Positions 1,092-30,743 of a stretch of 64,000 bases of DNA are shown here, one piece after another. Within the stretch, counting starts at the first letter, position 1; the number at the start of each line of letters is the position of its first letter. Where the stretch lies: the IMG/VR virus record IMGVR_UViG_3300042294_003246. One strand, given 5' to 3'. The notes beneath the pieces are model-generated. The model made no database searches. It saw only the letters and a program-made list of their open reading frames with translations, and was not told where the DNA came from. The translations under genes and the position numbers were made by a program. This DNA comes from a virus (Duplodnaviria > Caudoviricetes).

Positions 1092-1102
1092 AAAATAAAA
1101 TT

Positions 1103-1279: not shown

Positions 1280-1282
1280 TTT

Positions 1283-2120: not shown

Positions 2121-2135
2121 TTTTATTTTTAAACC

Positions 2136-2384: not shown

Positions 2385-2665
2385 GTAATCTAATTAAAAA
2401 TTACCCAAAGCCGGGTGAAAAATACCAACACTATAAAGGTGGTCAATACGAAGTTATTTGCATGTGTAATCACACAGATACTGACGAACCGCTAGTCATT
2501 TACAAATCACTTTCTTTTGGATCACAATATGCAAGACCATTTTCCGAGTGGAATGATCAAGTCGATACTCAAAACTACGGAGGTAAAGAACAACCAATTT
2601 TTAGATTTAAAAAAAATAGAAAAGTAATGATGAATAATTTAGTTATCAAAAAAGATAGTAATTGA
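2381..2665 (+). CDS. DUF1653-like protein
   Basis: YQHYKGGQYEV...DTDEPLVIYKSL...YARPFSEW matches recalled DUF1653 pattern. Confidence 0.75.
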   Translation: MSNLIKNYPKPGEKYQHYKGGQYEVICMCNHTDTDEPLVIYKSLSFGSQYARPFSEWNDQVDTQNYGGKEQPIFRFKKNRKVMMNNLVIKKDSN

Positions 2666-2686
2666 ATATAAAAATAAGATAGTAGA

Positions 2687-2694
2687 TATTTATA
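2687..2694 (+). promoter_or_regulatory. putative phage late promoter TATTTATA
   Basis: Motif recurs upstream of more than 25 genes in the window. Confidence 0.6.
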
Positions 2695-2707
2695 ATAAAC
2701 AAGTAAA

Positions 2708-3556: not shown

Positions 3557-3561
3557 CGAAA

Positions 3562-4656
3562 ATGAATAATTTAGACAAACAATACCAAGATTTACTTCAA
3601 GATATTTTGGATAATGGGGTAAAAAAAGAAACAAGAAATGGAGGAACCATCAGTGTTTTTGGTCGTCAGATCAGACACAACATGAGTGAAGGATTTCCTT
3701 TACTCACAACCAAGAAAATGTTTTGGAAAGGAATTGTAACTGAATTGATTTGGTTCCTACGTGGTGATACGAACATTAAATACCTTATAGATAATGATTG
3801 TCATATTTGGGACGGTGATGCTTATAAGAACTACGGTCAAAAGATTATCTCTGGAGGTTACCAAAATTTAGTTGCAATAGGATGGCCTAGTACACAAGAA
3901 GAGTTCATCAACAAAATCAAAACAGATGATGAGTTTGCTAAGAAGTGGGGAGATTTAGGTCCTGTGTATGGTAGACAATGGAGAGCGTGGGGTGGCTTTG
4001 ATAAAAAACCTTCAGGATGGAATCATGGGGCTGTTACTCATTTTTCTGAAGTGCCTAAACTTGACCAGATAAAAAATCTTATTCACGACCTTAAAACAAA
4101 TCCTGATAGCCGAAGATTGATGGTTACAGCTTGGAACCCATCGGAATTGGACCAGATGACTCTTCCACCTTGTCATTATGGATTTCAAATTTATACAAGA
4201 GAGTTCAGTTTACAGGAAAGAAAAGACATATATGATAAATCGTCTTATGTTAAAGATATTTTTCCGACAGATGAAAATGGATGGAATAGTTTATTCAATG
4301 ATTGTAGTATACCAACCAGGGCAATCTCTTTAATGTTCAATATGAGAAGCAATGATGTTCCGCTCGGGCTTCCATTTAATTTGGCTTCATATGGGTTACT
4401 TTTGATGATATTGGCAAAAGAGGTTAATATGGTACCTGAAGAATTGATTTCAAATATGGGAGATTGTCACATATATCTAAATCAAATTGATGGTGTGAAA
4501 GAACAATTAACAAGAGAACCATTTGAATTACCAACTCTTAATCAGTTCCCCACCTATGAAGGTTCAAGACCATCAATAGAATCTTATACTATTGGCGATT
4601 TCACACTTAAAAATTACAAATCACACCCAAGTATAAAAATGCCACTTTCTAACTAA
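3562..4656 (+). CDS. thyA: thymidylate synthase
   Basis: FPLLTTKK, GDLGPVYG, DSRRLMVTAWNP, catalytic PPCH, RSND..LGLPFN, GDCHIY; uninterrupted ORF with two insertions. Confidence 0.97.
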   Translation: MNNLDKQYQDLLQDILDNGVKKETRNGGTISVFGRQIRHNMSEGFPLLTTKKMFWKGIVTELIWFLRGDTNIKYLIDNDCHIWDGDAYKNYGQKIISGGYQNLVAIGWPSTQEEFINKIKTDDEFAKKWGDLGPVYGRQWRAWGGFDKKPSGWNHGAVTHFSEVPKLDQIKNLIHDLKTNPDSRRLMVTAWNPSELDQMTLPPCHYGFQIYTREFSLQERKDIYDKSSYVKDIFPTDENGWNSLFNDCSIPTRAISLMFNMRSNDVPLGLPFNLASYGLLLMILAKEVNMVPEELISNMGDCHIYLNQIDGVKEQLTREPFELPTLNQFPTYEGSRPSIESYTIGDFTLKNYKSHPSIKMPLSN

Positions 4657-4674
4657 CTTTTTATTATTTGAGGA

Positions 4675-4682
4675 TATTTATA
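4675..4682 (+). promoter_or_regulatory. putative late promoter TATTTATA
   Basis: Recurrent motif, upstream of the second GIY-YIG gene. Confidence 0.55.
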
Positions 4683-4711
4683 TTAAAGGATAAACCTTAA
4701 AGTAAATCAAT

Positions 4712-5545
4712 ATGAAGAAATTTTTAGTTTATGAAATAAAAAACAACATTAATGGTAAATCTTATGTCGGACAATATAGTGGATTATCATTTGAAAAATA
4801 TTTTGGGAGTGGAAAGTTGATTAAGTTAGCCATAAAAAAATATGGGTTAGAAAATTTCTCTAAAACTATTTTAGAAGAGTGTTCTAATAAAGATGAGTTG
4901 AATGAAAAAGAAATTTTTTGGATTGATAAACTCAAAACAATTGCAAACGGCTATAATTTAACTGAAGGTGGCACTGGTGGAGATTTATCTGAATTTATTA
5001 AGTATGATGAGAATTGGGTTGAAAACCAAAGACTCTCAACAAAAAAGTATTGGGACAATATCAGTGATGATGAAAGAAAAAAAAGAAGTGAAAGTGTATC
5101 TGGCGAAAAAAATGGAATGTATGGTAAAGAAGGATTTTGGAAAGGTAAGAAAATACCTAAAGAAATTGTAAAAAAATCATTAGATAATAGAAGAAGTTAT
5201 GATAAAGAACAAAATCCTAATTGGAAGGGAGGTTTAACTTATGTCTATTGTGAATGTGGTAAAAGAATAGGTTACGGTCACACTCATTGTAATAAATGTA
5301 GACCAAGAAGTAATGACGATAATCCATTTTTTGGTAAACAACATTCGGAAGAAACTAAAAATAAGTTAAGTGAAATCAGAAAAGGAACTTATAATGGAGA
5401 ACAGAATATACCAATAATAATTGATGATGTTGAATACCGTTCTGCTGGTGAGGCATCCAAAATACTTAATCTACCTATGGCAACGATAAGATGGAGGGTT
5501 TTAAGTAAAAATAAAAAATTTGACAATTACAAATACAAAGATTAA
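4712..5545 (+). CDS. GIY-YIG homing endonuclease
   Basis: LVYEIKNNINGKSYVGQ; YFGSG; GYNLTEGG; NUMOD3-like NPFFGKQHSEETKNKLS. Confidence 0.9.
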   Translation: MKKFLVYEIKNNINGKSYVGQYSGLSFEKYFGSGKLIKLAIKKYGLENFSKTILEECSNKDELNEKEIFWIDKLKTIANGYNLTEGGTGGDLSEFIKYDENWVENQRLSTKKYWDNISDDERKKRSESVSGEKNGMYGKEGFWKGKKIPKEIVKKSLDNRRSYDKEQNPNWKGGLTYVYCECGKRIGYGHTHCNKCRPRSNDDNPFFGKQHSEETKNKLSEIRKGTYNGEQNIPIIIDDVEYRSAGEASKILNLPMATIRWRVLSKNKKFDNYKYKD

Positions 5546-5557
5546 AATTAAATTAAT

Positions 5558-5695
5558 ATGACACACCACAATGTTTGGTTTAAAAGATGGTTTAACCCCA
5601 CGCTAAGAAAGATATTCAAAGTTGAGATATGTTCTTTAATTGATGGTGAAACTGTGATTGGGTATGGAATAAGAAAATATAAAAAGTTATGTTAG
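5558..5695 (+). CDS. small hypothetical protein (45 aa, not in track)
   Basis: MTHHNVWFKRWFNP...; fills the gap and overlaps the next start. Confidence 0.5.
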   Translation: MTHHNVWFKRWFNPTLRKIFKVEICSLIDGETVIGYGIRKYKKLC

Positions 5696-6372
5696 GATTA
5701 AGAAAGGTTGAACCTGGTAGATGGAGAAATGATTGGATGGAGTTTTACCCTGGATTCCATAAATGGAATTTAAGATACCTACCAAGTAATGGATTAAATT
5801 GGAAATTAGATTTTTGTTTTATTTGGGGTCAATTTTATATGACATTCAAAACAAACAAACCACCAAAATATAAGGATGAAAGACCAAAATATGGATTTTA
5901 TTTTTATTCGGTAGGTAGTTGGTTTCCTGATTCATTATGGATCCATAGAGGAACAAAAAAAATAAAATGTATTGATTTACCTTGGCAATATGATTGGGTA
6001 AGAACATCCAAATTTCTAAAAGATGGAACATGGGCACACCAAACCAAAAAAAATAAAATTGATTTTTATACTCCTGAATGGAAAGAAAAAATCCATAAAG
6101 AAACACATAAATACTATTACATTCACGACGATTTGTTCCAAGATACTGAGGCCACTTGTAAGTTAGAGGAAAGAGAATGGAGACCAAGAATGTTCAGGTG
6201 GACACGACTTTTTAGAAAAGTAAGACGAAGTATTGATGTTGATTTCAGTAATCCGATTGGGAAAGGTGTTGATTCATATAAAGGAGGAACTTATGGTGCG
6301 GGACACGACACTAATAAAGGTGAGACAATTAAACAATGTCTTAAAAGAATGATGAAAGAAAGAAAATTTTAA
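5689..6372 (+). CDS. phage hypothetical protein, Trp-rich
   Basis: 227-aa ORF in operon context. Confidence 0.7.
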   Translation: MLGLRKVEPGRWRNDWMEFYPGFHKWNLRYLPSNGLNWKLDFCFIWGQFYMTFKTNKPPKYKDERPKYGFYFYSVGSWFPDSLWIHRGTKKIKCIDLPWQYDWVRTSKFLKDGTWAHQTKKNKIDFYTPEWKEKIHKETHKYYYIHDDLFQDTEATCKLEEREWRPRMFRWTRLFRKVRRSIDVDFSNPIGKGVDSYKGGTYGAGHDTNKGETIKQCLKRMMKERKF

Positions 6373-6388
6373 CAACAAAAAATAAATT

Positions 6389-6700
6389 ATGACAGGAAAA
6401 TACCTAATTACAACAGACAGATATTTTGTCGCACCTGACGGAAAAACTTATACCGCAGTTTGGGGTGATGTTAATATTTTAGAAGACTCCATTCTCGGAG
6501 TTAAAACGAACAGAAATAGTGCCAACTGGTATGCGATGGTTGGTAAAAATGGTAAAGAAATTACTATTGCGGGATGTCAAATATTTTACGCTATTAAGTG
6601 TGAGGAAAAACCATACACAGAAGACGTGGAAGATTGGACGGTTGATAATGGTAAGTTTGATACATACGTAAGACCAACTAAAATTTACATCGCAGAATAA
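6389..6700 (+). CDS. hypothetical protein
   Basis: A-rich leader; operon context. Confidence 0.7.
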   Translation: MTGKYLITTDRYFVAPDGKTYTAVWGDVNILEDSILGVKTNRNSANWYAMVGKNGKEITIAGCQIFYAIKCEEKPYTEDVEDWTVDNGKFDTYVRPTKIYIAE

Positions 6701-6727
6701 CACTCAACAATTAAAGTTTATTAAATT

Positions 6728-7276
6728 ATGAAAAAAAAAATTTCACAAGAAGAAATTCAAGAAATTGAAAGATTAACAGGGGGAAAAATTGGAACACATA
6801 CATTTGGACCAAACAACGAAAACACATTGGAAAATTCATTCTTATCGCCTGATGGAACATATATCGGTAGTATTGATGAAGCAAGATGGTATGTTAAAAA
6901 TAAAATGATGGTTGATGAAAATTATCCCCACGGAGTTGCTGCGGTTATTATCGAAGATACATATGGAACTGATAACCCTGTTATCGAAGGGATGTATGGA
7001 TACACTCACAGAGGTGGTAGTCTTTTCAAAATCGGAGATAGATTATTTGATGGGGATTATGAACCCGTTAAAGAAGATTACCCTGAAGAACAATGGAATG
7101 AATACGAAACAAAGTTCGCGGATTTATATCAAGAAGAAGATGAACTTGGTAGAAAATGGATGGATGAAGACGGAATATCTTATGTAATACCATTCAAATT
7201 AAGAGGATCAAAATTGATTGAAACAATGGAAGAAGCATTTGAAGCCGCTAAAAATATGTCAAATTATTTAAGTTAA
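6728..7276 (+). CDS. hypothetical acidic protein
   Basis: 182-aa ORF in operon context. Confidence 0.7.
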   Translation: MKKKISQEEIQEIERLTGGKIGTHTFGPNNENTLENSFLSPDGTYIGSIDEARWYVKNKMMVDENYPHGVAAVIIEDTYGTDNPVIEGMYGYTHRGGSLFKIGDRLFDGDYEPVKEDYPEEQWNEYETKFADLYQEEDELGRKWMDEDGISYVIPFKLRGSKLIETMEEAFEAAKNMSNYLS

Positions 7277-7280
7277 TATT

Positions 7281-7718
7281 ATGAAAACAAAAGTATATTC
7301 AGCTTTCCCCGGTGTAGGGAAAACAACTTACTTCAATACAACAGATAGAAATGTATTGGATAGTGATAGTTCAAAGTTTGACAAGAAACATTTTCCTGAC
7401 AACTACATTGAACACATCGAAAGAAACGTAGAAGATCCAAAGGTTGATAAGATTCTTGTTTCATCACATAAAGATGTAAGAGATGCTCTATTAAAAAAAG
7501 GTATTCCATTCGTATTAGTTTATCCTGACAGAAGTCTAAAAGACGAATACATTCAACGATATAAAGAAAGAGGAAATAACGATTCGTTTGTTGACTTATT
7601 GGACAAAAATTGGGATAATTGGATGGACGAGATGGATCAAATGGAAGCACCTGAAGGTCAAACTTTATATAAGGTAAAATTAGGTCCGGGTCAATACTTA
7701 ACAGATGTAATAGATTAA
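7281..7718 (+). CDS. P-loop kinase-like protein
   Basis: N-terminal Walker A AFPGVGKT; size typical of a nucleotide kinase. Confidence 0.7.
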   Translation: MKTKVYSAFPGVGKTTYFNTTDRNVLDSDSSKFDKKHFPDNYIEHIERNVEDPKVDKILVSSHKDVRDALLKKGIPFVLVYPDRSLKDEYIQRYKERGNNDSFVDLLDKNWDNWMDEMDQMEAPEGQTLYKVKLGPGQYLTDVID

Positions 7719-7721
7719 AAA

Positions 7722-7958
7722 ATGAAAGAACAAAACGATTGGAATGATCCCATTTTATCAGATGGAGATTTTCCACAAGTAAACAAAACAAAATTCCAAG
7801 TAGGAGACAAGGCAGTAAAATTAAAAGGATATAAGTTTCCTTGCACCATCGTATCGGTATTTAAAACCGTAGAAGGAAATGTTAGAGTCGTAGGAGAAAT
7901 GGATGAACACGGACTTCTTCACATCTTCAACGAAGATCAATTAGAACGCACCAACTAA
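7722..7958 (+). CDS. small hypothetical protein
   Basis: FQVGDKAVKLKGYKFPCTIVSVF, small beta-barrel-like. Confidence 0.6.
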   Translation: MKEQNDWNDPILSDGDFPQVNKTKFQVGDKAVKLKGYKFPCTIVSVFKTVEGNVRVVGEMDEHGLLHIFNEDQLERTN

Positions 7959-7959
7959 A

Positions 7960-8139
7960 ATGAAAAATTTAAAAAAATATACAATCAAAGAAATTTTTAT
8001 TTCTGAGTTAGGTTATTTGATGGTGAAACTTTATAACAATGAAAAACAAGTTTTTACAACTTTAAATCTTGGTAATTGGAAAGACAATTTAAACTTTGAT
8101 TTATATAATATAAATCTTGATGAGGTGGGCAAAAAATAA
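7960..8139 (+). CDS. small hypothetical protein (59 aa, not in track)
   Basis: MKNLKKYTIKEIFISELGYLMVK...; starts 1 nt after previous stop. Confidence 0.55.
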   Translation: MKNLKKYTIKEIFISELGYLMVKLYNNEKQVFTTLNLGNWKDNLNFDLYNINLDEVGKK

Positions 8140-8171
8140 AACAATCAATATTTATTATTAAAACAATAGAT

Positions 8172-9056
8172 ATGAAAGTTCTAAAATTAGGATCTAAAGG
8201 TAAAGAAGTTGAAGATTTACAAAAATATTTAAAAATTAAGGTTGATGGTGATTTTGGACCAAAAACCGAAGAGTCGGTTAAAAAATTCCAAAAAGAAAAT
8301 AAACTAACCGCCGATGGTGTTGTTGGTGAAAAAACATGGAATGCCATGGGATTTGGTATTACCACCGACCTTCAAGAAACGACATTATCAACAGAAAAAC
8401 TGATTATAGATCAAAAATTTTTAGATAAAGACGAATACCTGATAGGACCAACAAAAAAAGAATATTTGTTTTTACATCACACCGCAGGTGGAAACAACCC
8501 ATACCAAGTTATTACAATGTGGAATAACGATACAAGAGGACGAATTGGAACTGAGTTTGTTTTAGGAGGACAATCTGTTTTTAACGGAAATGAAACTTAT
8601 GATGGGACAATCGTTCAGGCATTTCCTGAAGGTTGTTATGGTTGGCACTTAGGAGATAATGGATCACAACACATGCACTCACACTCAGTTGGAATTGAGG
8701 TATGTAATTTTGGTCAAATTAAAAATGGTTTAACTTATACAGGACAAAAAGCTGACCCAAAACAAATTGTGGAACTTAAACAATCATTTAGAGGGTATAA
8801 GTTCTGGCATAGATATTCAGACAAACAAATTGAGACATTGAGATCTTTAATTTTACATATTGCAAATAGAGACAGCATCGACATTCGAAAAGGTTTAATT
8901 GAAGAAATCAAAAATAAAGGAGCTTTAGGTTTTGAATTTAATTCTGACGCATATTATGGTAGAGTAAAAGGAATGTGGACTCACACAAACACCAGAAAAG
9001 ATAAGTTCGACATGTTCCCCCAACAAGAACTTATTGATATGTTATTATCTTTGTAA
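8172..9056 (+). CDS. endolysin: peptidoglycan-binding domain + N-acetylmuramoyl-L-alanine amidase
   Basis: LKLGSKG..V..LQ...DGDFGPKT...DGVVG; LHHTAG, SVGIEVCNFG, WTH...DMFP; TATTTATT at 8149-8156. Confidence 0.9.
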   Translation: MKVLKLGSKGKEVEDLQKYLKIKVDGDFGPKTEESVKKFQKENKLTADGVVGEKTWNAMGFGITTDLQETTLSTEKLIIDQKFLDKDEYLIGPTKKEYLFLHHTAGGNNPYQVITMWNNDTRGRIGTEFVLGGQSVFNGNETYDGTIVQAFPEGCYGWHLGDNGSQHMHSHSVGIEVCNFGQIKNGLTYTGQKADPKQIVELKQSFRGYKFWHRYSDKQIETLRSLILHIANRDSIDIRKGLIEEIKNKGALGFEFNSDAYYGRVKGMWTHTNTRKDKFDMFPQQELIDMLLSL

Positions 9057-9075
9057 TGTATTAAAAATATTATTT

Positions 9076-9104
9076 AAACCCCATCTCAACAGGTGGGGTT
9101 TTTT
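9076..9104 (+). terminator. intrinsic terminator
   Basis: AAACCCCATC-TCAACA-GGTGGGGTTT plus T-run. Confidence 0.85.
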
Positions 9105-9179
9105 GTTTTTACCTATTGACTATGATATTTATTTTTGTTAAAATTTATTAACAAATAAACCCTTAATAAAAGTCGAAAC

Positions 9180-9356
9180 ATGAAAAATGTATTTTTTGTA
9201 AGTTTGATGTTACTTGGGACTACACTTGGTGTTGTTTCTTGTGGTGAAAAAAAAGAAAACGAAACCACACAAGAAGCAAAATCTGAAGATTCAACAAAAA
9301 ATGTTGATACTCAAAGTGTAAAACAAGATACACTTGTGCTAGACAACCAGAAATAA
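9180..9356 (+). CDS. small lipoprotein (58 aa, not in track)
   Basis: MKNVFFVSLMLLGTTLGVVS-CGEKKENETTQE: signal peptide II with lipobox Cys and charged tail. Confidence 0.75.
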   Translation: MKNVFFVSLMLLGTTLGVVSCGEKKENETTQEAKSEDSTKNVDTQSVKQDTLVLDNQK

Positions 9357-9385
9357 TAATATGTATCAATTTGGATATTATTTCT

Positions 9386-9412
9386 CCCCCATCCTGTAAG
9401 GTGGGGTTTTTT
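9386..9412 (+). terminator. intrinsic terminator
   Basis: CCCCATC-CTGTAA-GGTGGGG plus T6. Confidence 0.85.
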
Positions 9413-9413
9413 G

Positions 9414-9445
9414 TTTGACATTTGTATTTAAATTTGTTATTTTTG
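9414..9445 (+). promoter_or_regulatory. Bacteroidota housekeeping-sigma promoter
   Basis: TTTG 9414-17, 20-nt spacer, TATTTTTG 9438-45, ATG 9453. Confidence 0.75.
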
Positions 9446-9452
9446 TTTTATT

Positions 9453-9776
9453 ATGACAGATCAAGAAATCATTAAATACGGAGAAATACAATACTTAAAG
9501 GGTAGGTTAGATGAACTATTCAAAGCTCTATCAACAATAACCAATATTGATAGAAAAAGAAGATTAGACCAACGAATTGAAAAATATTTCAACAAATTAA
9601 AAAAAGTTGATGAGGTTGCATTTCATTTATATCAAGTTGAGTTGGTAAACAGACAAAGGTCGAAAGAAAAGTCCAAGAACGAAATCAAAGACCTATTGGA
9701 ACAAATTCTAATTAATGAAAATATTACAAATGAAGATATTCTTGATAGAATTAAAAAACAAATAGATCTATACTGA
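9453..9776 (+). CDS. hypothetical helical protein
   Basis: Follows host-type promoter. Confidence 0.7.
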   Translation: MTDQEIIKYGEIQYLKGRLDELFKALSTITNIDRKRRLDQRIEKYFNKLKKVDEVAFHLYQVELVNRQRSKEKSKNEIKDLLEQILINENITNEDILDRIKKQIDLY

Positions 9777-10009
9777 TGAAAACCAAAATACATGTGAATC
9801 AACATCACATTAGGTCTAATAAAACAAAGAATACCGATTTACCTGTTATAACAATCAAACAAGGTAGAAGAAACACATATTGTAATGAGGTTGAAATTCT
9901 CGGACCTAGTAGGATTGTTTATTGTGGAAGTGGCGATGAAAAACCACTATTAAGTTGTGGGGCAAGAGTCGTAATAGAAACTGAGAGTGAAATTAAAATA
10001 ATAAGTTGA
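9776..10009 (+). CDS. phage hypothetical protein
   Basis: IHVNQH...PVITIK...KPLLSCGARVVIET; overlaps at both ends. Confidence 0.7.
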   Translation: MKTKIHVNQHHIRSNKTKNTDLPVITIKQGRRNTYCNEVEILGPSRIVYCGSGDEKPLLSCGARVVIETESEIKIIS

Positions 10010-10386
10010 TGAGCGATAAAAAACCTGATAATGTTTCTGATAACCCTGGTTTATTACCATATGGTAGTAATGTTGGTGCTCCGGCAATAAAGGTCACCAA
10101 TATGGAACATTGGAAGGAACCAAGAATTATAAATGTCAATCAACAATTTGAGGATAAATTTTTGGAACTCAAAGAGGAGTATGAAAAATTAATTGAAGAA
10201 TACAGATGGAATGAATTGGTTTACAAAGCAAATTTTAGTTTTGAACCGGTAATTGGTAAAGTTTATCACCTTTATTATTCCTCAGACGAAAAAATATTCT
10301 TATCTTTGATATCACCAAATGAATGGAATAAAAAATATATTGGGACTTTTAAATTTAATTATAATAATAAATGGACAAAACTATGA
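10006..10386 (+). CDS. DUF2452-like protein
   Basis: LLPYGSNVGAPAI; FSFEPVIGKVYHLY (recalled family pattern). Confidence 0.6.
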   Translation: MMSDKKPDNVSDNPGLLPYGSNVGAPAIKVTNMEHWKEPRIINVNQQFEDKFLELKEEYEKLIEEYRWNELVYKANFSFEPVIGKVYHLYYSSDEKIFLSLISPNEWNKKYIGTFKFNYNNKWTKL

Positions 10387-10577
10387 ATGCAAACAAAGAT
10401 TTTGAATTTGTGCTTAGAGTATTAAACTCAAGCGAAAACCGTGAACACATTAAAACTACAGATAAACTGTTTGAAAATTTCAAAAACAAGTGGAAACGAA
10501 ATATGGAATGTTATGAGCTTGTAGATTACATGTTCAAATATAAAGTAGAAAGAAAAAGAAATAAAAAAAATATATGA
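10371..10577 (+). CDS. hypothetical protein
   Basis: Operon packing; start may be 10383. Confidence 0.55.
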   Translation: MDKTMNANKDFEFVLRVLNSSENREHIKTTDKLFENFKNKWKRNMECYELVDYMFKYKVERKRNKKNI

Positions 10578-11266
10578 AACTTACAATAATTTCAGATACT
10601 CACAACAAACATAAACACGTTACCGGTGATTTACCGGGTGGTGACTTGTTAATTCATGCAGGAGACCTTAGTTCTATGGGTTATGAACACGAGATTCGTG
10701 AGTTCGCTAAGTGGTACAATGGGTTGGATAATTACACCAGTAAAGTTTTTATTGCTGGTAACCATGATTGGGGATTTCAAAACAATGTTGATAAAGTAAA
10801 AGAGATTGTTGGTTTCTATAATAATATAACTTATTTGGAAGATAGTTTTATGGGAATAATTGAAGGAGGGGAACCTGAAGTTAAAATTTGGGGTAGTCCT
10901 TGGCAACCTGTGTTTTATAATTGGGCATTTAATCTCCCACGAAATGGTGAGGAATTAAAGTCAAAATGGGATATGATACCTGAAGACATTGATATTCTAA
11001 TCACTCACGGTCCAGCTTGGGGGTTTTTGGATGATGTTGAAGGTCGTCGTGGACAACACTTGGGTTGTGAACTACTAACAGAACGAATTAAACAAATCAA
11101 ACCTAAAATTCATATCTGTGGACACATCCATAGTGGTTATGGACATTATTATGATGGACATACTCATTACTTCAACGCATCAGTATTGAATGAACGATAT
11201 CTTTATTCTCATTTACCTTGGAATATAGATTGGGATCCAATTACAAATGAGGTTAAGTTTTTATAA
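10574..11266 (+). CDS. calcineurin-like metallophosphoesterase
   Basis: SDTH, HAGD, AGNHD, ITHGP, GHIH motifs. Confidence 0.92.
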   Translation: MKLTIISDTHNKHKHVTGDLPGGDLLIHAGDLSSMGYEHEIREFAKWYNGLDNYTSKVFIAGNHDWGFQNNVDKVKEIVGFYNNITYLEDSFMGIIEGGEPEVKIWGSPWQPVFYNWAFNLPRNGEELKSKWDMIPEDIDILITHGPAWGFLDDVEGRRGQHLGCELLTERIKQIKPKIHICGHIHSGYGHYYDGHTHYFNASVLNERYLYSHLPWNIDWDPITNEVKFL

Positions 11267-16764: not shown

Positions 16765-17454
16765 ATGAAAATCATCATTTCAGAAGATCAACAAAAAGTA
16801 TTACTTGAATCAAAACAAATTGATTCAGTTCAAAATCTTGTTGATATGGCGGTTGAAGATTATGTTGAAGGTTGTTCTAGAAGACATGCATTTAGAAATC
16901 TTGAACTTGCACTTTGTAAAGGGTTCAAGAACGGAACAACAAAACTTAAAGTTTTAGAAGTAAAAAAAATACACGACCATTATGATGTAAAACTTTCTAT
17001 ACACACAGATCAAGAATGGTTTCAAAGAGCGGACTTTCAAGATTTTGAAATCACATTAATACTTAAAGTTGCAAATATAATAGGAACACACAAATATGGG
17101 TTTGATATTAAGGACATGGAATTAAATGATCGTGATGAAGAAGTGATTTCTGAAAGTCGTGAAATGAGTACTAAACTAAGACGAAGATTTAGTGAACTTG
17201 AAAAAATTGGAGAGTCAATAGAGTATCAAACTGAAATACAAGATCCATGTGATTTTGAGGATGAGAATGACTATGCTGACTATTGTATTGGACAAGGACT
17301 TTATTTTTATTACAACGATGATGAAGATGAAGACTATGAATATCCACCAGACGAAATGGTTGAGGTTAGAGATGAGGTAGAAGAATATTTAGAAGAAAAA
17401 TACCACAATTATTTAGTAGATATTTATAATGACTTAGTAGAAAACTGTAACTAA
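16765..17454 (+). CDS. MKIIISE-leader family protein, two modules
   Basis: MKIIISEDQQKVLLES; internal VISES; TATTTATT at 16753-60. Confidence 0.75.
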   Translation: MKIIISEDQQKVLLESKQIDSVQNLVDMAVEDYVEGCSRRHAFRNLELALCKGFKNGTTKLKVLEVKKIHDHYDVKLSIHTDQEWFQRADFQDFEITLILKVANIIGTHKYGFDIKDMELNDRDEEVISESREMSTKLRRRFSELEKIGESIEYQTEIQDPCDFEDENDYADYCIGQGLYFYYNDDEDEDYEYPPDEMVEVRDEVEEYLEEKYHNYLVDIYNDLVENCN

Positions 17455-24599: not shown

Positions 24600-25255
24600 T
24601 GGATAACGAAAAAATATTAAAACTATTCAAACATTTTGCAGGTGATCCTTTGGACATACATGGTTTGGTTGTTACACCCGTTAAAGTAGAACCATCTGTT
24701 AGAAGAAATGGTAGAACTAACATGTATTTCAGAGTTCAAAACCCGAATGATGTTTCATATTTTTCACCAATTGTTGGGGATTATATTTATGATGAAACAG
24801 AAGACTTTGGGGATTTTGTAAATGAAAAAATTGATGTGTATTTTGTACCAAACTTTAAACAAGGAATTTATTTAAATGAAGAATTAAAATCAAGAATTCA
24901 AAAAGTGTTTAATTCCGTTAAAGAGATTAATTTTACATTAGGAACTCCTTTTATTGGTTATGAAAGATACAAATTATTTATTGAATCAGTTGGTGTATCA
25001 ACAAGTTATTGGGATAATGAAAGTTTTGGTTTATACAATAATGTGAAAGTAGTAAGAGCCGAAAAAGATGGTGAGTGGTGGGATCCTAAAGTTGTTGTAA
25101 GTGAATATCTTAATGACTTTCTACCTGACAAAGAAAGTTACTGGGAAACAGAAAATCTTTACCCCCAAATTGACAACATCTTAAACAATTATCCCCTATT
25201 TAGGGATCCATACGGCAACAATTTAGGTTACTACGATACCAAGTTTATCCAATAA
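24599..25255 (+). CDS. hypothetical protein
   Basis: Coupled to lysozyme stop; converges on uvrC. Confidence 0.7.
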   Translation: MDNEKILKLFKHFAGDPLDIHGLVVTPVKVEPSVRRNGRTNMYFRVQNPNDVSYFSPIVGDYIYDETEDFGDFVNEKIDVYFVPNFKQGIYLNEELKSRIQKVFNSVKEINFTLGTPFIGYERYKLFIESVGVSTSYWDNESFGLYNNVKVVRAEKDGEWWDPKVVVSEYLNDFLPDKESYWETENLYPQIDNILNNYPLFRDPYGNNLGYYDTKFIQ

Positions 25256-26519
25256 CTTTTTTTGATCTTTTTTTACGGTGAAAAGAAATCACAAATCTGT
25301 GAACTTCATTTTGAACTTCAGCAAGCAAAAATCCAAACTCATTTCGTGGAATATCAAATGACGACCCGTCAGTCAAGTGGATTGTTTGAGATTGGTGTTT
25401 GTCGTTTTTGGAAATAGAAATCAAATCAATACGAGATAACAAACCAAGAGATTCAAATACTTGTTTTGCAACACCCAACTGACCTTTACCACCATCAATA
25501 ACAACAAGTGAAGGTAACTCTTGTTTTTCGTTCAAAAGTCTTGTAAAACGACGAGAAAGAACTTCAGTGAATGAAGCGTAGTCATCAGGACCCTCAACAG
25601 TTTTGATGTTAAACTTACGGTAGTTTGACTTATCAGTTTTACCATTCTTGTAACGAACAAGAGCAGACACTTGACAGTCACCACTAGTGTGAGAATTGTC
25701 AAACGCCTCAATCAAAGTAGGAACATTGATAAGACCCAAAGATTCTTTAAACTGACGAGCAACATCATTATACTTTCTAACACGAAAAGGTTCAAGTTTC
25801 TTTTGAAGTGAATCAACAACAGAGATTTTAGTTTTGAACTCTTGAGCTTTCTCAAACTCCATAGAATCAGAAAAATATTTCATAGACTTTTTCAAACGAC
25901 TACGAACCTTGTCAAACTCAAAAGAAAATACTTCTTTCATCTCACTTACAATCTTCTTGTAGGAGAACTTTAGAATGTTTGAAATACAAGGTGCATTACA
26001 ACGACCAAGATGAAACTCCAAACAAGTTTTGAACTTTTCGTTTGAAATGTTTTCTTCAGTCAAGTTGTAAGAACAAGAACGAAGATTGAAGATGTCGTGA
26101 ACCATTTCATAGATCTCATAACAAGAGTTGGAACTTGTAGACTCAAGAAGGATCTGACCTGAAAAGTTAGAAGGATTACAAACTTGTAAACGAGGGAACT
26201 CCTCATCACTCAAAGTAATAAACCAACGACGAGATCTGTCGTCTTTTGCTTTGATGTTGTATTTTGGTTTCAAAGACTTGATAAGTTCGTCCTCCAACAA
26301 AAGAGCCTGTGACTCATCGTTAGTAGTCATGAACTCAACATCACGGATCTCACTCACAAGAGAAGTAGTCTTGATATCCTTGTGATTTTTTTGAAAGTAA
26401 GACTTCACTCGTTTCGGTAAAAACTTTGACTTACCCACATAGATGATCTGACCCTTCTCATTTTTGAAAAGGTAACAACCACTTGATTGGGGAATGTTTG
26501 AAAGTTTCTCTGTAATCAC
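25245..26519 (-). CDS. uvrC: excinuclease UvrC lacking the C-terminal HhH domain
   Basis: GCYLFK..IIYVGKS; CLEFHLGRCNAPC; UVR domain; IEAFDNSH, YRKFNIK, DDYASF, VIDGGKGQL; GTG start 26519 just after TATATTTG (26531-26524). Confidence 0.9.
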   Translation of the reverse strand: MITEKLSNIPQSSGCYLFKNEKGQIIYVGKSKFLPKRVKSYFQKNHKDIKTTSLVSEIRDVEFMTTNDESQALLLEDELIKSLKPKYNIKAKDDRSRRWFITLSDEEFPRLQVCNPSNFSGQILLESTSSNSCYEIYEMVHDIFNLRSCSYNLTEENISNEKFKTCLEFHLGRCNAPCISNILKFSYKKIVSEMKEVFSFEFDKVRSRLKKSMKYFSDSMEFEKAQEFKTKISVVDSLQKKLEPFRVRKYNDVARQFKESLGLINVPTLIEAFDNSHTSGDCQVSALVRYKNGKTDKSNYRKFNIKTVEGPDDYASFTEVLSRRFTRLLNEKQELPSLVVIDGGKGQLGVAKQVFESLGLLSRIDLISISKNDKHQSQTIHLTDGSSFDIPRNEFGFLLAEVQNEVHRFVISFHRKKRSKKVIG

Positions 26520-26614
26520 AATACAAATATAGTGAAAATCTTTCAAATAATAACATAAACATCATAAACTTTCATTGGCCCAAACCTAATTATTTTTTTG
26601 TCGTATTTATGTGT

Positions 26615-27670
26615 ATGAAACTAATATCTTTTATAGTATCTATATTTCTATTTTTCATTAGTTTATCACAAACTCAAACCGTAACTTTTAATTATACAGG
26701 TGCTGTTCAAACATGGGTTGTTCCACCTTGTGTTACTTCTATCAATGTAGTCGCCGCAGGAGCAAAAGGTGGAGGTGCTATTGGAGGAAACGGAGCAAGA
26801 ATAACCGCAACAATAGCCGTAACACCAGGTCAAACTCTGAATATATATGTTGGTGGAATGGGGACATGTGGAAATAATTCAGGAGGATGGAATGGTGGAG
26901 GAACAGGATATGCTTCTAACCCTGCGAATGTAACATATAATTCTTGTGGTGGTGGAGGTGCAACTGATATTAGAATTGGAGGAACCGCACTTGCAAATAG
27001 AGTAATTGTTGCAGGAGCGGGTGGTGGTAAAGGTGGAGGATCAAACACAAATACACCTGGTGGTGGAGCCTTATGTAATAACGGAGCAAACGGAGGAAAT
27101 ACCTTTGGTGCTGGCGGTGGAGGAGGAACACAAGTTGCAGGAGGAAATGGTGGTGCTCCTTGGGCAGGAACACCTCCTGGTGGTCAAGCAGGAACATTAG
27201 GTCAAGGTGGAAATGGTGGATTTTGGCAAACGGCATCAGGTGGCGGTGGCGGTGGCGGTCGTTATGGCGGTGGCGGTGGAGGAAATGATGGATGTTGCAC
27301 TGGTGCTAACGGTGGAGGTGGTGGCGGTGGAGGATCTTCACTTGTCCCTGTTGGAGGAACTTGTTTACCCACAAACAACACAGGACACGGATATTTAACA
27401 ATCACTTACACACCCGTTAATTTGGTGGTTAACCCAACCTCAACAAATGTCACATGTTTTGGATTATGTGATGGAACCGCAAACTCAAATGTAACAACAC
27501 CAGGGGCCACTTTTCTTTGGTCACCGGGAGGACAAACAACCCCTTCAATATCAAATCTTTGTCCTGGCACATATACCGTAACGGTAAATATAAGTGGTTG
27601 CACAGCAACAGGATCTGTAACTATAACCCAACCTAATCAAATATTGTTAGGTCCAATAAACCATAATTAA
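26615..27670 (+). CDS. secreted glycine-rich-domain protein with SprB-like repeat
   Basis: Signal peptide ending SLS-Q; TFNYTGAVQTW..GGGATDIR..VAGAGGG; TNVTCFGLCDG; ends LGPINHN; TATTTATG at 26604. Confidence 0.8.
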   Translation: MKLISFIVSIFLFFISLSQTQTVTFNYTGAVQTWVVPPCVTSINVVAAGAKGGGAIGGNGARITATIAVTPGQTLNIYVGGMGTCGNNSGGWNGGGTGYASNPANVTYNSCGGGGATDIRIGGTALANRVIVAGAGGGKGGGSNTNTPGGGALCNNGANGGNTFGAGGGGGTQVAGGNGGAPWAGTPPGGQAGTLGQGGNGGFWQTASGGGGGGGRYGGGGGGNDGCCTGANGGGGGGGGSSLVPVGGTCLPTNNTGHGYLTITYTPVNLVVNPTSTNVTCFGLCDGTANSNVTTPGATFLWSPGGQTTPSISNLCPGTYTVTVNISGCTATGSVTITQPNQILLGPINHN

Positions 27671-27679
27671 AATAAAAAA

Positions 27680-28246
27680 ATGAAAAAATTATTTGTATTA
27701 CTATTCATGTTTTTGACTACAACACTTTTTGGTCAATTAACAACAAACAATCCCGACACAATTTGTTTTCAATCAGGAACCCTTTCTCAATACACCGTTA
27801 CTTCAGTTGGTAATGGAAACTATAACTGGACAATCCCTGCGTGTGCAACAATCCAATCAGGGCAAGGAACAAATACAATATTTGTCAATTGGTCCAATTG
27901 TCCTGCGGGTCTTATCAATAATGGTGTGTCGGTTACTTATACAAGTCCTCAAGGGTGTTTTTCACCAGCGGTTAACCTAAATGTTTTAATTTATAATGTT
28001 GTTCCAACAATAACTCAAATTGGACCATTTTGTTCAACAGATCCATGTGTTCCTTTAGTTGGAACTCCTGCGGGTGGGATTTGGTCGGGACCTGGTGTTG
28101 TTAATGGTCAATTCTGTCCTCAAACTGCGGGAGCAGGAACACACACAATATCTTATTTATATTCAAACGGAGGATGTTCATTTTCAACAACAATAAACGT
28201 AGTTGTAAACCCATTACCAACATTAACACCAATATCACATAACTAA
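27680..28246 (+). CDS. secreted PKD/Ig-like protein
   Basis: Signal peptide ending LFG-Q; DTIC, YNWT, GPFC, GIWSG; ends LTPISHN. Confidence 0.78.
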   Translation: MKKLFVLLFMFLTTTLFGQLTTNNPDTICFQSGTLSQYTVTSVGNGNYNWTIPACATIQSGQGTNTIFVNWSNCPAGLINNGVSVTYTSPQGCFSPAVNLNVLIYNVVPTITQIGPFCSTDPCVPLVGTPAGGIWSGPGVVNGQFCPQTAGAGTHTISYLYSNGGCSFSTTINVVVNPLPTLTPISHN

Positions 28247-28815
28247 TGAAACAATTATTGTTTTTGTTTTTATTTTTTAGTTTAACTTGTTTTTCACAAC
28301 AAGAATTTGAAATATGTGAAAGTTCAAATACCGTGACATATTCAACTTCAATTGATATGAGTGGAACTATTGAATGGTTTTTGAATGGTTTCAGTTTAGG
28401 AAACGGAAACGATATGAGTATTACATATAGTCAACCTGGTGATTATCAAATAGTGGCGGTTGGTTATAATGATTTAGGATGTCCAGGTCCACCTGTTGTG
28501 TATAATGTGAGTGTAACAAAATGTGATCCCTTAATTTATTGGGTCCCAAATTCTTTTACACCCGATAATAATGAATTTAATCAAACGTGGGGACCAGTAA
28601 TAACAAGTGGGATTTCTTTAGAAAACTTTGAACTTACGGTTTATAATAGGTGGGGAAATATTGTTTGGCAAAGTAAAAACGCAAATACAAATTGGGACGG
28701 AACATATAATGGTAGTTTTGTTCCTGATGGAACATACTCTTGGATTATGAAAATTGACTTATTAGACTCTGATGAATTGAAAGTTATTTCAGGTTTTGTT
28801 ACTATTATCAAATAA
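28246..28815 (+). CDS. secreted protein with T9SS type B (gliding-motility C-terminal) domain
   Basis: Signal peptide ending CFS-Q; VPNSFTPD, VYNRWG, WDGTYNG, DGTYSW. Confidence 0.88.
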   Translation: MKQLLFLFLFFSLTCFSQQEFEICESSNTVTYSTSIDMSGTIEWFLNGFSLGNGNDMSITYSQPGDYQIVAVGYNDLGCPGPPVVYNVSVTKCDPLIYWVPNSFTPDNNEFNQTWGPVITSGISLENFELTVYNRWGNIVWQSKNANTNWDGTYNGSFVPDGTYSWIMKIDLLDSDELKVISGFVTIIK

Positions 28816-28824
28816 AATTGATAT

Positions 28825-29175
28825 ATGGAAATAACTAAAATAAATTATAAAGAAGTTTATGAAAACTTCAAGGAAGTAAAACCAGATCTTTTAGATGAAT
28901 ATGCGACTTACTACGGATGTTATATCAAAGACAAGTTAGTTGGAATTGTTTCTTATGTTGAACATGATTCAGTTATTTATTTGTGCCATGCTTATGTTTT
29001 AGAAGAGTATAGAGATAGGGGAATCTACAAATTACTTTGGAACTATAGAGATTCAAAAATACATGATACAGAAAAAACAATCTATGCTCACTGTAATGTT
29101 GATAGTTTGAAATACTTTATTAACAACGGTTTCTCTATTGAGAAAGCACTTTTCAAAGTTGTTAAAAACAAATAA
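28825..29175 (+). CDS. GNAT family acetyltransferase
   Basis: LVGIV...YVLEEYRDRGIY...YFINNGF. Confidence 0.7.
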   Translation: MEITKINYKEVYENFKEVKPDLLDEYATYYGCYIKDKLVGIVSYVEHDSVIYLCHAYVLEEYRDRGIYKLLWNYRDSKIHDTEKTIYAHCNVDSLKYFINNGFSIEKALFKVVKNK

Positions 29176-29229
29176 AAAAGTTTCAATATTTTCTTTTTTA
29201 TGTCATTTACATTTACTATATTTTAGTAT

Positions 29230-29547
29230 ATGTTAAGACATCAAAACCCAATTCAAATTAAAGCGACAACAACAGGATTTGCTTCACCAGCAGAAACCTA
29301 TGTTGATAAAAGGTTAGATCTAAACGACTTAATTGTTAAAGATCATTATACAACATTTTATTTTAAGTATTCAGGACCAAGTGTGTTTGGAATTAACCAA
29401 GGAGATACAATTGTAATTGACCGAACTGAGGATCCAAAAGATGGGGATTTGGTAGTTTTAACAGAAAAAACACACTTCAAACTTAGAGAATACAAAGGAC
29501 AAAAAAACTTATGGGGAAAAGTAACATGGATATTAAAGAAAATGTAA
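29230..29547 (+). CDS. umuD: UmuD-like S24 family protein, divergent
   Basis: TGFASPA..Y...LDLN..IV; GPSV; GDTIVIDR; directly upstream of umuC. Confidence 0.75.
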   Translation: MLRHQNPIQIKATTTGFASPAETYVDKRLDLNDLIVKDHYTTFYFKYSGPSVFGINQGDTIVIDRTEDPKDGDLVVLTEKTHFKLREYKGQKNLWGKVTWILKKM

Positions 29548-30743
29548 GAAAGATTGGAATTATTGACTGTAACAACTTTTATGTTAGTTGTGAACGGTTA
29601 TTTAACCCTGAGTCAATTGGAAGACCTACCGTTGTATTATCAAACAACGACGGATGTGTGATTGCCAGATCTCAAGAAGCAAAAGATCTTGGAATTAAAA
29701 TGGGTGAACCATTTTTCAAGAGCCGTGAGTTCATGGACCAACATAGATTTTGCGTCTATTCATCAAATTATAACTTGTATGGTGATATCTCAGATCGGGT
29801 TATGAAAGTGATTGGTGAGTTTGGAAATGACATTGAAGTGTATTCTATTGATGAAGCTTTTGTTGATTTTTCAAACATTCCTCTTGAAGATCTAACAGAA
29901 ACATTATTGGGAATCAAAGAAGAAGTAAGAAAGAAAGTTGGAATCCCTGTATCTATCGGTGTTGGTCCGAACAAAACCTTAGCTAAACTAACATCTTATT
30001 TAGCTAAACAACAGCTAAACTATAATGGTGTGTGTTCATACTGGGACTTACCAAACTTTAGAAATATTTGTTATGGAATTGATGTAGATGAAGTTTGGGG
30101 TATTGGTAGAAAATGGGCAAAAAAATTAAAAAACATCGGTGTTGAATCGGTAGGTCAGTTTATTAACACAAACGAATATACTGTTAGAAAGTTGATGAAT
30201 ATCAATGGTGTAAAAACACAATTGGAGTTAACAGAGATGTATTGTTTTCCAATTCAAAAAAAATCCAAACCAAAGAAGAATATCGCTTCCACTCGTTCAT
30301 TTGGAAAAGATGTACAGGACTTTGATCAATTGGGTGAAGCGATGTATACCTACATTAAAAACGGTGTAAAAAAACTAAGTCAAAACAAATTGTTTGCAAA
30401 TAAGGCAACCATATTTGTTTCAGGAAACTATCATAAAGGAGATAAGTATCACCATTCTAAAACAATCAAACTACAAACCCCAACAAGAGATCCCGATCTT
30501 ATTTGGTCTCAGATTCATGAACAATACAAAGTTCTTTGTAATAAATCTGAAAAATATAAAAAGTGTGGAATTGTTTTTAATGAACTAACTCCCGACACAA
30601 TTATTCAAACCTCTTTATTCAATGATGAGGTCCAAGTTGTTGAAGCACCACAGAATGAAACTCATGAGTGGGAAATGAGACAAGACTATATTACTCAAAA
30701 ATATACTACATCTTGGGATGAACTCCCTTATGTTTTTGTGTAG
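29526..30743 (+). CDS. umuC: Y-family DNA polymerase (Pol V catalytic subunit)
   Basis: IDCNNFYVSCER, VVLSNNDGC, YSIDEAF, GIPVSIG..KTLAK, VWGIG; C-terminal WEMRQ...YTTSW; start 29511 or 29526. Confidence 0.93.
   Translation: MDIKENVRKIGIIDCNNFYVSCERLFNPESIGRPTVVLSNNDGCVIARSQEAKDLGIKMGEPFFKSREFMDQHRFCVYSSNYNLYGDISDRVMKVIGEFGNDIEVYSIDEAFVDFSNIPLEDLTETLLGIKEEVRKKVGIPVSIGVGPNKTLAKLTSYLAKQQLNYNGVCSYWDLPNFRNICYGIDVDEVWGIGRKWAKKLKNIGVESVGQFINTNEYTVRKLMNINGVKTQLELTEMYCFPIQKKSKPKKNIASTRSFGKDVQDFDQLGEAMYTYIKNGVKKLSQNKLFANKATIFVSGNYHKGDKYHHSKTIKLQTPTRDPDLIWSQIHEQYKVLCNKSEKYKKCGIVFNELTPDTIIQTSLFNDEVQVVEAPQNETHEWEMRQDYITQKYTTSWDELPYVFV

Follow-up and report, generated by a model that had tools for sequence, protein, structure and literature searches.

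Three adjacent genes in the window, by which we mean the whole 64,000-nucleotide stretch of viral DNA analyzed here, are collinear with a single-chain paralogue encoded elsewhere in the same DNA, and we consider it probable that they are the parts of a gene-fissioned type IX secretion system (T9SS) adhesin that is reassembled by donor-strand complementation, exported on the signal of its last part and fitted with swappable heads. We refer to the three products as tip, middle and anchor (Table 1). An earlier note on this DNA had pointed out the collinearity, and three BLASTP matches, in order and spanning residues 400-816 of the paralogue, bear it out: tip 277-350 matches 400-475 (44% identity, E = 2e-11), middle 13-187 matches 461-639 (42%, E = 4e-32) and anchor 19-189 matches 647-816 (38%, E = 7e-33). 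The C-terminal domain of the tip aligns to the second SprB repeat of the paralogue. The cut sites align exactly in 21 single-chain relatives (G-P-I-x-x-x / D-T-V-C and P-I-T-P-S / D-E-F-x-E-L-C). By its profile coordinates the Pfam PKD_6 domain begins upstream of D-T-V-C, so that the tail of the tip falls within the domain model for the gene that follows it. In an AF2 model of paralogue residues 385-816 (pLDDT 81), I634 and T638, which correspond to L182 and S186 of the middle, are beta-bridge positions ahead of a low-confidence linker. The best structural matches to this model in Foldseek are fragments of the Aureispira protein GhpA (E = 3e-13 to 4e-10), and the C-terminal domain of the anchor matches that of GhpA by sequence (E = 2e-11).

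Table 1. Positions of the three genes, their tails and the single-chain paralogue in the window
Feature	Position	Strand	Basis
Tip subunit, 353 aa	26609..27670	+	ORF call; homologues' starts point to 26615
Tip tail L-G-P-I-N-H-N, then TAA stop	27647..27670	+	Sequence
Middle subunit, 188 aa	27680..28246	+	ORF call and Pfam
Middle tail L-T-P-I-S-H-N, then TAA	28223..28246	+	Sequence; residues 177-188 are the predicted interface
Anchor subunit, 189 aa	28246..28815	+	ORF call and Pfam PF13585
Anchor strand predicted to accept the tail of the middle, residues 30-38 (invariant Y32 among them)	28333..28359	+	Complex prediction, alignment
Single-chain paralogue, 816 aa	55364..57814	+	BLASTP, Pfam, AF2

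The domain content of the three proteins fits their order. The tip has a signal peptide, an ALK_LTK-type glycine-rich head (PF12810, E = 4.3e-09), one SprB-type repeat and the C-terminal tail; the middle has a signal peptide (1-18), a PKD_6 domain (E = 7.8e-07), a second Ig-like domain and its tail; and the anchor has a signal peptide (1-17), a small Ig-like domain (18 to ~95) that is the putative acceptor, and a CHU_C domain (100-187 of 189). This last domain, the T9SS type B domain (PF13585, E = 9.8e-17), lies at the extreme C-terminus. Among the trio Pfam finds CHU_C only in the anchor, in keeping with the earlier statement that the type B tail is limited to the last gene. The paralogue has it too, at the end of a chain made up of a signal peptide, a ~300 aa uncharacterised head, two SprB repeats, PKD_6, an Ig-like domain and a small Ig-like domain. 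Tip and middle, in which Pfam detects neither CHU_C nor Por_Secre_tail, end at I-x-H-N straight after the Ig-like domain. By inspection, each part has the Gln-type signal peptide of its own that had been ascribed to it (M-K-x, a hydrophobic stretch, then Gln). For the anchor this reads M-K-Q, 13 hydrophobic or small residues and S|Q-Q, a pattern that is kept in the alignment. Cleavage is predicted at G|Q, S|Q and S|Q, and none of the three sites has a lipobox Cys at +1.

The three proteins add up to ~730 aa. Tip and middle share a frame in the window, with one TAA and 9 nt between them, and middle and anchor are in different frames, joined by a TAATG overlap in which the last base of the middle stop is the A of the anchor's ATG. 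The true start of the tip is likely the second ATG, at 26615, because homologues begin with MKL. A scan of 26300-29300 detected no terminator on the + strand between the genes of the trio, in weak agreement with a single operon, and promoter-like sites in the same region are not in excess of the shuffled expectation. Contigs of a 90-97% identical relative in one metatranscriptome extend over parts of all three genes, in a library that may hold DNA and with contigs that give no expression level. The neighbors of the trio are a GNAT acetyltransferase and UmuD/UmuC-like genes; PorP is not among them.

The split arrangement is widespread. Of 80 viral loci, 41 contain the trio, in every instance with a single copy of tip, middle and anchor. 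Most middle-anchor pairs show the TAATG overlap, and a TAA stop closes all H[ND] genes of those loci. At least five unrelated tip heads occur on one and the same middle and anchor chassis, and the earlier idea of an interchangeable tip is thereby supported. The family is seen in lake metagenomes from 2016 to 2024, and the source of the window is a freshwater jumbo phage. In an isolated-phage database, distant relatives occur only in one uncultured 634-kb phage record (LR745206.1). Scans of bacterial genomes with protein and alignment queries did not return the split module, a result of peptide-pattern scans that does not prove absence; what they gave were relatives of the repeat domain within giant adhesins and nothing else. 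Most of the 7527 relatives of that domain are giant proteins with many repeats, and the closest bacterial ones are from Fluviicola, Crocinitomicaceae and other Flavobacteriales MAGs, no more than a hint at the host.

The tails are the most conserved part of these otherwise diverging proteins. Middle homologues number 365 (183-198 aa, 55-94% identity), and all 118 full-length ones end in P-x-L-[STQ]-P-I-[QS]-H-[ND], with H(-2) and I(-4) in every case; Asp replaces the terminal Asn in ~10% of middles. The invariant positions of the middle include Q19, P25, D26, T27, C29, P180, L182, P184, I185 and H187. Tips of an unrelated class end in L-G-x-I-x-H-[ND] (H in 120/120, I in 119/120), and tip homologues in five loci end in GPI[NS]HN. 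The earlier note had described the motif as PI(N/S)HN and had made its conservation in homologues one of the points on which the idea would stand or fall. That conservation is found in middles and unrelated tips alike. The core of the motif is I-x-H-[ND] with a preceding Leu, and the Pro of the original description is dispensable in tips. Two positions separate the classes: position -6 is Gly in 119/120 tips and in 0/118 middles, and the His is preceded by Gln or Ser in middles but by any residue in tips. The difference at -6 would fix the order of assembly. All 45 anchor homologues carry CHU_C, begin the mature protein with Q-Q-x-F-E-I-C and lack an H[ND] tail; Y32 is invariant in their alignment.

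Several comparisons support the view that the tail is a conserved functional element specific to the split form and no product of chance. The position equivalent to the His is His in none of the 21 single-chain relatives. An H[ND] C-terminus occurs only in tip and middle among the 111 window ORFs of at least 80 aa, and in none of 415 ORFs in 38 bacterial loci with a related repeat domain. The acceptors in turn have conserved residues that are missing in the single chains (Q18 and N75 in the anchor; S36, Q31 and T22 in the middle). Inspection by eye of 34 unique trios gave no clear pattern of covariation, beyond lineage, between the variable residues of the tail and the acceptor strand.

Multimer structure prediction, a check that the earlier note had suggested along with the idea of strand donation, places the tail of the middle on the anchor. 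With mature middle and mature anchor as input and our own alignments, the complex prediction gave ipSAE values of 0.72, 0.71 and 0.73, against 0.00 for the best of three controls. In the calibration of the method, which applies only roughly to runs on our own alignments, 58 of 80 solved complexes attain this mark, as do 2 of 110 mismatched pairs. At least 98% of contacts recur between the runs, and the pLDDT of the partners does not fall below 80. The predicted interface comprises residues 177-188, 116 and 118-120 of the middle and 19, 30-38, 40, 42, 69, 71-75, 77-82 and 84-86 of the anchor. In it the last 12 residues of the middle are modeled as an antiparallel strand on the N-terminal domain of the anchor (contacts middle:anchor 180:38, 181:37, 182:36, 183:35, 185:33 and 186:32; expected error 0.6-1.0 A). 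By sequence there is no homologous complex in the PDB, which makes it unlikely that the predictor reproduced a complex already solved. In an AF2 model of a read-through fusion (TAA as Gly; last domain of the tip, signal peptide and middle), built to probe the contact of tip and middle, tail and linker have pLDDT below 50. By analogy, the tip may contact the middle in the way the middle is predicted to contact the anchor.

Based on this evidence, we propose that an Ig-repeat T9SS type B cargo was cut by gene fission at two inter-domain points, giving three genes, and that each part would reach the periplasm through its own Sec signal peptide. The last residues of tip and middle, (L)-x-x-I-x-H-[N/D]-COOH, would be the first beta-strand of the Ig-like domain encoded next door. 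In the periplasm this tail would insert beside the second strand of the downstream N-terminal domain and cover its core, which is donor-strand complementation; His, the terminal Asn/Asp and the free carboxylate would replace the lost covalent link, although this detail is a guess. The resulting 1:1:1 tip-middle-anchor rod would keep the domain order of the single-chain paralogue, cross the outer membrane through the T9SS of the host on the single type B C-terminal domain of the anchor, and stay held on the surface of the infected cell as an adhesin. The split would permit heads to be swapped on a constant middle and anchor chassis within the phage lineage. A cognate PorP/SprF-like outer-membrane partner is often encoded beside type B cargo (PMC9143113). 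Neither the window nor its relatives yielded a PorP/SprF-type partner for the type B domain; a PF11751 (PorP_SprF) search of four related phage records gave no match, and the control genomes gave no response either. In the literature searched, we found no precedent for T9SS export of a non-covalent complex, and no such module was described in connection with T9SS and phage, donor strand, hitch-hiking or split adhesins.

A wider reading, which we put forward only tentatively, is that the I-x-H-[N/D]-COOH tail and its acceptor form a natural, portable docking pair and that proteins without a C-terminal domain (CTD) ride one type B subunit across the outer membrane. This might then be the first multi-subunit, hitch-hiking T9SS cargo, through which freshwater Flavobacteriales jumbo phages display varied binding heads on infected cells by means of a plug-in chassis, with a junction that is perhaps kinetically locked or even covalent.

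We weighed these results against other readings of the split and of the tail. In the window, the frame shared by tip and middle might suggest an artefact or decay, with a single-chain gene either broken by a nonsense mutation or restored by read-through or frameshifting. We give this practically no credence. The same three ORFs, every one headed by a signal peptide, persist across hundreds of homologues that are 55-94% identical; the anchor is read in another frame than the middle; tip and middle frames differ in three loci, and another has TAATAA; and a fused chain would have no use for an internal signal peptide. The comparative data thus already refute a pseudogene or read-through, and the earlier contention that the split is no frameshift holds. 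A rather unlikely reading is that the tail is a C-terminal signal for some further protein (a chaperone, for instance, a PDZ-type protein of the periplasm, or a component of T9SS or other export); tip and middle would then be sorted or stabilised each by itself, with no need for binding to the following subunit. PDZ-type domains read peptides by the extreme C-terminus with its free carboxylate, which is where the motif lies; two different proteins share the I-x-H-[ND] core; and the association of the subunits is itself predicted. However, the cuts fall exactly where the single chain runs on into the next domain, the acceptors carry conserved residues specific to the split, the tail docks on the anchor in the complex model (score 0.72; best control 0.00), and one shared reader would have no need of a systematic difference at -6 between tips and middles. 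A sortase, exosortase or rhombosortase signal was rejected: the motif is the last five residues, and no transmembrane helix and basic tail follow it.

Two further readings keep the contact between subunits and change its nature. As in type V or chaperone-usher pili, the acceptor domain of the middle could receive the middle tail as well, which would give a pilus-like polymer, tip-(middle)n-anchor. The tails of tip and middle are nearly identical (LGPINHN and LTPISHN), the gene order of tip, shaft and anchor resembles that of pilus operons, and the anchor resembles a terminator subunit in having no donor tail. We nevertheless find a polymer unlikely. The domain order is that of the monomeric single-chain paralogue, the TAATG translational coupling of most middle and anchor genes suggests equal amounts, and a Gly at -6 that is near universal in tips and never seen in middles is consistent with exclusion of the middle tail from the middle acceptor. 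With always exactly one middle gene, coupled to the anchor, the modular filament pictured in the earlier note is not borne out. The ligation that it offered beside strand donation fares no better, and we regard as very unlikely that the junction is sealed covalently after docking, by an isopeptide or ester at the terminal Asn/Asp or by a peptide bond that an enzyme would make to the N-terminal Gln of the subunit that follows. Lys-Asn/Asp isopeptide chemistry does tolerate alternation of Asn and Asp, as in CnaB and SpyTag domains, and such alternation is seen at the last position. The His is invariant, the C-terminus of the donor adjoins the N-terminus of the acceptor in the model, and residue 19 of the anchor touches the tail. 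Against this, the acceptor domains have no invariant Lys and no Thr/Gln pair common to both; the variable residue before the His means that a Thr-Gln ester is not conserved; the free C-terminus has no leaving group past the terminal Asn/Asp and the periplasm has no ATP; and N-terminal Gln in Bacteroidota is usually cyclised and would then be blocked.

To our knowledge, every T9SS cargo described so far has a C-terminal domain of its own. A CTD found only on the last gene of a conserved module implies that the T9SS may export pre-assembled non-covalent complexes; if this is true, cargo prediction based on the CTD alone would miss subunits. The trio would also be a clean natural case of gene fission within an Ig-repeat chain that is repaired by strand donation, and its tail of ~7 residues, with key positions invariant across hundreds of sequences, is a candidate for a compact docking tag that protein engineers could use. 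In phage biology the trio would represent a family of host-surface proteins, encoded by phages, that is widespread, persistent and equipped with swappable heads, and it points to remodelling of the infected-cell surface (adhesion, aggregation, receptor masking) as a trait that may be under selection in Bacteroidota jumbo phages.

The closest known proteins are single-chain T9SS type B Ig-repeat cargo, such as SprB of Flavobacterium johnsoniae, the CHU large proteins and the Aureispira grappling hook GhpA (PDB 9flp and related entries), which also combine a Sec signal, SprB/PKD-type repeats and CHU_C. These are one polypeptide, whereas the trio is three small phage-borne genes with the CTD only on the last, and its cut ends bear an invariant I-x-H-[ND] that the single-chain relatives lack. 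In the type V pili of Bacteroidota (FimA/Mfa1; PMC4789730, PMC8512630), C-terminal strands likewise complete the fold of the next subunit, and the trio shares with them the logic of tip, body and anchor, the donor-less anchor and the phylum-level setting. However, type V pilins are lipoproteins that polymerise after proteolysis removes an N-terminal strand, whereas the signal peptides of the trio have no lipobox Cys, no processing step is evident, the folds are PKD-/SprB-type Ig domains with a T9SS CTD, and the evidence favors a fixed heterotrimer. Chaperone-usher pili also have an incomplete Ig-like fold that is completed in trans by the terminal strand of a neighbor, as predicted here, but their donor is an N-terminal extension and they require a periplasmic chaperone and an outer-membrane usher, neither of which is encoded beside the trio. 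Inteins end in the same two residues, His-Asn, as the tails of the trio. This likeness is superficial, and an intein was rejected: Pfam finds no Hint domain, TAA rather than a Cys/Ser/Thr extein residue follows the Asn in every locus, and Asp is allowed. Lastly, in engineered split Ig-like domains (SpyTag/SpyCatcher) a cut terminal strand rebinds the rest of its domain, as predicted for the trio; SpyTag and SpyCatcher form a Lys-Asp/Lys-Asn isopeptide, whereas the trio has no conserved Lys, and its split is natural and conserved.

Three adjacent genes in the window, here called tip, middle and anchor, encode the parts of a putative split adhesin, and we find that their matches run collinear along a single chain of the same domain order, the 816-aa paralogue at 55364-57814. 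All three ORFs begin with M-K-x, a hydrophobic stretch and Gln. The tip ends in L-G-P-I-N-H-N and the middle in L-T-P-I-S-H-N, each followed by TAA, and the stop of the middle overlaps the anchor ATG as TAATG. Such H[ND] ends are found in only these two of the 111 window ORFs of at least 80 aa. By Pfam, the tip has a glycine-rich ALK_LTK-type domain and the middle PKD_6, and the anchor is the only part with CHU_C, the type B C-terminal domain of the T9SS. The earlier note had described this arrangement correctly in every particular, as judged from the ORF ends, domains and BLASTP matches. It had also placed the start of the tip at the second of two in-frame ATGs (26609 and 26615; M-C-M-K), which is probably the true start because homologues begin M-K-L at the equivalent of 26615. 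The head (N-terminal domain) of the 816-aa paralogue spans ~300 aa after the signal peptide, starts Q-Y-C-P-Y-I-G-P-D and has no Pfam family. Because many viral contigs (L022 and L023 among them) encode 654-820-aa single chains with the same start, this head represents a second conserved family of phage-borne type B cargo.

Parts of the putative split adhesin, their matches to the 816-aa paralogue, and classes of tip head
Feature	Position	Strand	Length or identity	Basis
Tip	26609-27670	+	353 aa	ORF
Middle	27680-28246	+	188 aa	ORF
Anchor	28246-28815	+	189 aa	ORF
Tip residues 277-350	816-aa residues 400-475		44% identity	BLASTP
Middle residues 13-187	816-aa residues 461-639		42% identity	BLASTP
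Anchor residues 19-189	816-aa residues 647-816		38% identity	BLASTP
Tip head, glycine-rich			348-452 aa	
Tip head, Q-C-N-G type			193-216 aa	
Tip head, 262-aa type				
Tip head, 322-aa type				
Tip head, 428-aa type				

The terminal motif, or tail, is kept in homologues. Homologues of the middle number 365 (183-198 aa; lowest identity 55%), and all 118 full-length middles among the matches listed end in P-x-L-[STQ]-P-I-[QS]-H-[ND]. For a 197-aa tip of unrelated fold (locus L001; 266 homologues), L-G-x-I-x-H-[ND] is the end of 120/120 listed homologues. Anchors (n = 45 homologues) have no I-x-H-[ND]-type tail and share the mature N-terminus Q-Q-x-F-E-I-C. An anchor alignment gathered 80 viral loci. 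The split trio is present at 41 of them, a count that allows for GTG starts and contig ends, and a 654-820-aa single chain at another 38; no locus has a second middle, and in none does a tip immediately precede an anchor. Every H[ND]-ending gene at these loci stops with TAA, at one locus as TAATAA, and the frames of neighbouring genes vary between loci. These features exclude read-through, frameshifting and recent decay, and the claim that the split is not a frameshift stands. Both cuts map exactly in 21 single-chain relatives, the first to G-P-I-x-x-x / D-T-V-C and the second to P-I-T-P-S / D-E-F-x-E-L-C, and none of the 21 has His at the equivalent of the invariant His. In the acceptors (the N-terminal domains of the next subunits), Q18 and N75 of the anchor and S36, Q31 and a T-rich N-terminal extension of the middle are conserved in the split form but absent from single chains. 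At the level of sequence, the tails are a conserved feature found only in the split form.

The neighbours of the trio in the window are a phage lysozyme, a UvrC-like nuclease, a GNAT acetyltransferase and a UmuD/UmuC-like pair. The UvrC-like nuclease (GIY-YIG plus UvrC RNase H domain; 25245-26546, -) on one side, and the UmuD-like S24 peptidase and Y-family polymerase (29230-30743, +) on the other, represent phage-encoded DNA repair and translesion synthesis. The GNAT gene (116 aa; 28825-29175) may be co-transcribed with the anchor, because it starts 9 nt past the anchor stop with no terminator between; it is not kept 3' of the trio at other loci, and L013 has a different gene there. In L001 (157-kb contig; 910-11034) the trio sits within the tail structural block: two tail-sheath genes and a tube-like gene (162 aa) lie on one side of it and, on the other, a tape-measure-like gene (816 aa) called from our own sequence reading without annotation. 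The position differs from phage to phage, as for an inserted accessory gene cassette. At L026 (909-3359) and L015 (2473-4932), an 816-819-aa protein with Ig_7 and Por_Secre_tail (type A T9SS) is encoded directly upstream of the trio, so these phages have cargo genes of both T9SS types next to each other. Lake-water metagenomes spanning 2016 to 2024 contain near-identical DNA, and relatives occur on IMG/VR contigs as long as 436 kb. Contigs of a relative in one RNA library, a kind of library that may also contain DNA, give a hint of expression. The only record with relatives in the deposited phage collection is LR745206.1 (unannotated uncultured phage, 634,780 bp), at about 16817-17128 and 26971-27441, where part of the glycine-rich domain is matched at 75% nucleotide identity and the middle at 42% protein identity. 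Window positions 27183-27356, which are GGT-rich and encode the poly-Gly part of the tip, draw many unrelated metagenome contigs and show depth spikes and many loose ends, making read-based depth unreliable there. Pattern-based scans of 185,579 bacterial species genomes did not find the split module and returned repeat-domain relatives only, mostly from Fluviicola, Crocinitomicaceae and other Flavobacteriales, which hints at the host group.

On the simplest reading, each cut would leave the first strand of an Ig-like domain on one subunit and the remainder on the next, to which the strand would be donated back in trans. Along the tails, conserved residues (-6, Gly/Ser; -4, Ile; -2, His) alternate with variable ones (-5 and -3, in tips), a pattern consistent with a strand that buries one of its faces. 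The PKD_6 profile starts upstream of D-T-V-C, so the tip tail falls inside the domain model of the next gene. Complex prediction with mature middle and mature anchor gave ipSAE of 0.72, 0.71 and 0.73, against at best 0.00 for controls (n = 3), with at least 98% of contacts in common between runs and partner pLDDT of at least 80. The mark was reached by 58/80 solved complexes versus 2/110 mismatched pairs in calibration, counts that apply only roughly here because we supplied the alignments. The multimer prediction proposed as a check thus supports binding of middle to anchor, although a model does not itself demonstrate it. The predicted interface comprises the last twelve residues of the middle (177-188), plus 116 and 118-120, and anchor residues 19, 30-38, 40, 42, 69, 71-75, 77-82 and 84-86. 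Its best-defined middle:anchor pairs (180:38, 181:37, 182:36, 183:35, 185:33 and 186:32) show, in the model, the middle tail in antiparallel beta pairing with anchor strand 30-38; L182 and I185 additionally contact core strands. AF2 modelled the single chain at pLDDT 81 and put the residues corresponding to L182 and S186 at beta-bridge positions directly before a low-confidence linker. By sequence, the PDB holds no complex homologous to middle-anchor.

At least five tip architectures, most with heads lacking a Pfam family, share one tail type and the same middle and anchor, as expected of the interchangeable tip that had been suggested. Position -6 is Gly in 119/120 listed tips and 0/118 listed full-length middles, and could restrict tip to middle and middle to anchor. 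This difference, the usual TAATG coupling of middle-anchor pairs and the identical domain order of the single-chain paralogue favour a 1:1:1 rod over a polymer such as the filament envisaged in the earlier note.

Since tip and middle lack a T9SS domain, they would by themselves get no further than the periplasm. The T9SS transports proteins in folded form, and a strand-complemented rod would look to it like the single-chain paralogue as a substrate; we infer that tip and middle are exported as part of the rod. Type B cargo is retained by PorP-like proteins (PMC9143113). An uninformative search identified no PorP-like gene near the trio. In the literature, our searches turned up no description of T9SS cargo made of several subunits, nor of any T9SS cargo with donor strands.

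The terminal His-Asn resembles the end of an intein only superficially, and we reject an intein since Pfam shows no Hint domain and no residue follows the tail. Sortase-type signals require a membrane helix after the motif; none follows the tail, and we reject this reading as well. Among solved structures, the closest folds are those of fragments of GhpA, the grappling-hook protein of Aureispira and itself a single-chain type B cargo. As predicted here, the trio shares the principle of strand donation with type V and chaperone-usher pili, but differs from both in fold, signal peptide type, processing, helper proteins and polymerisation.
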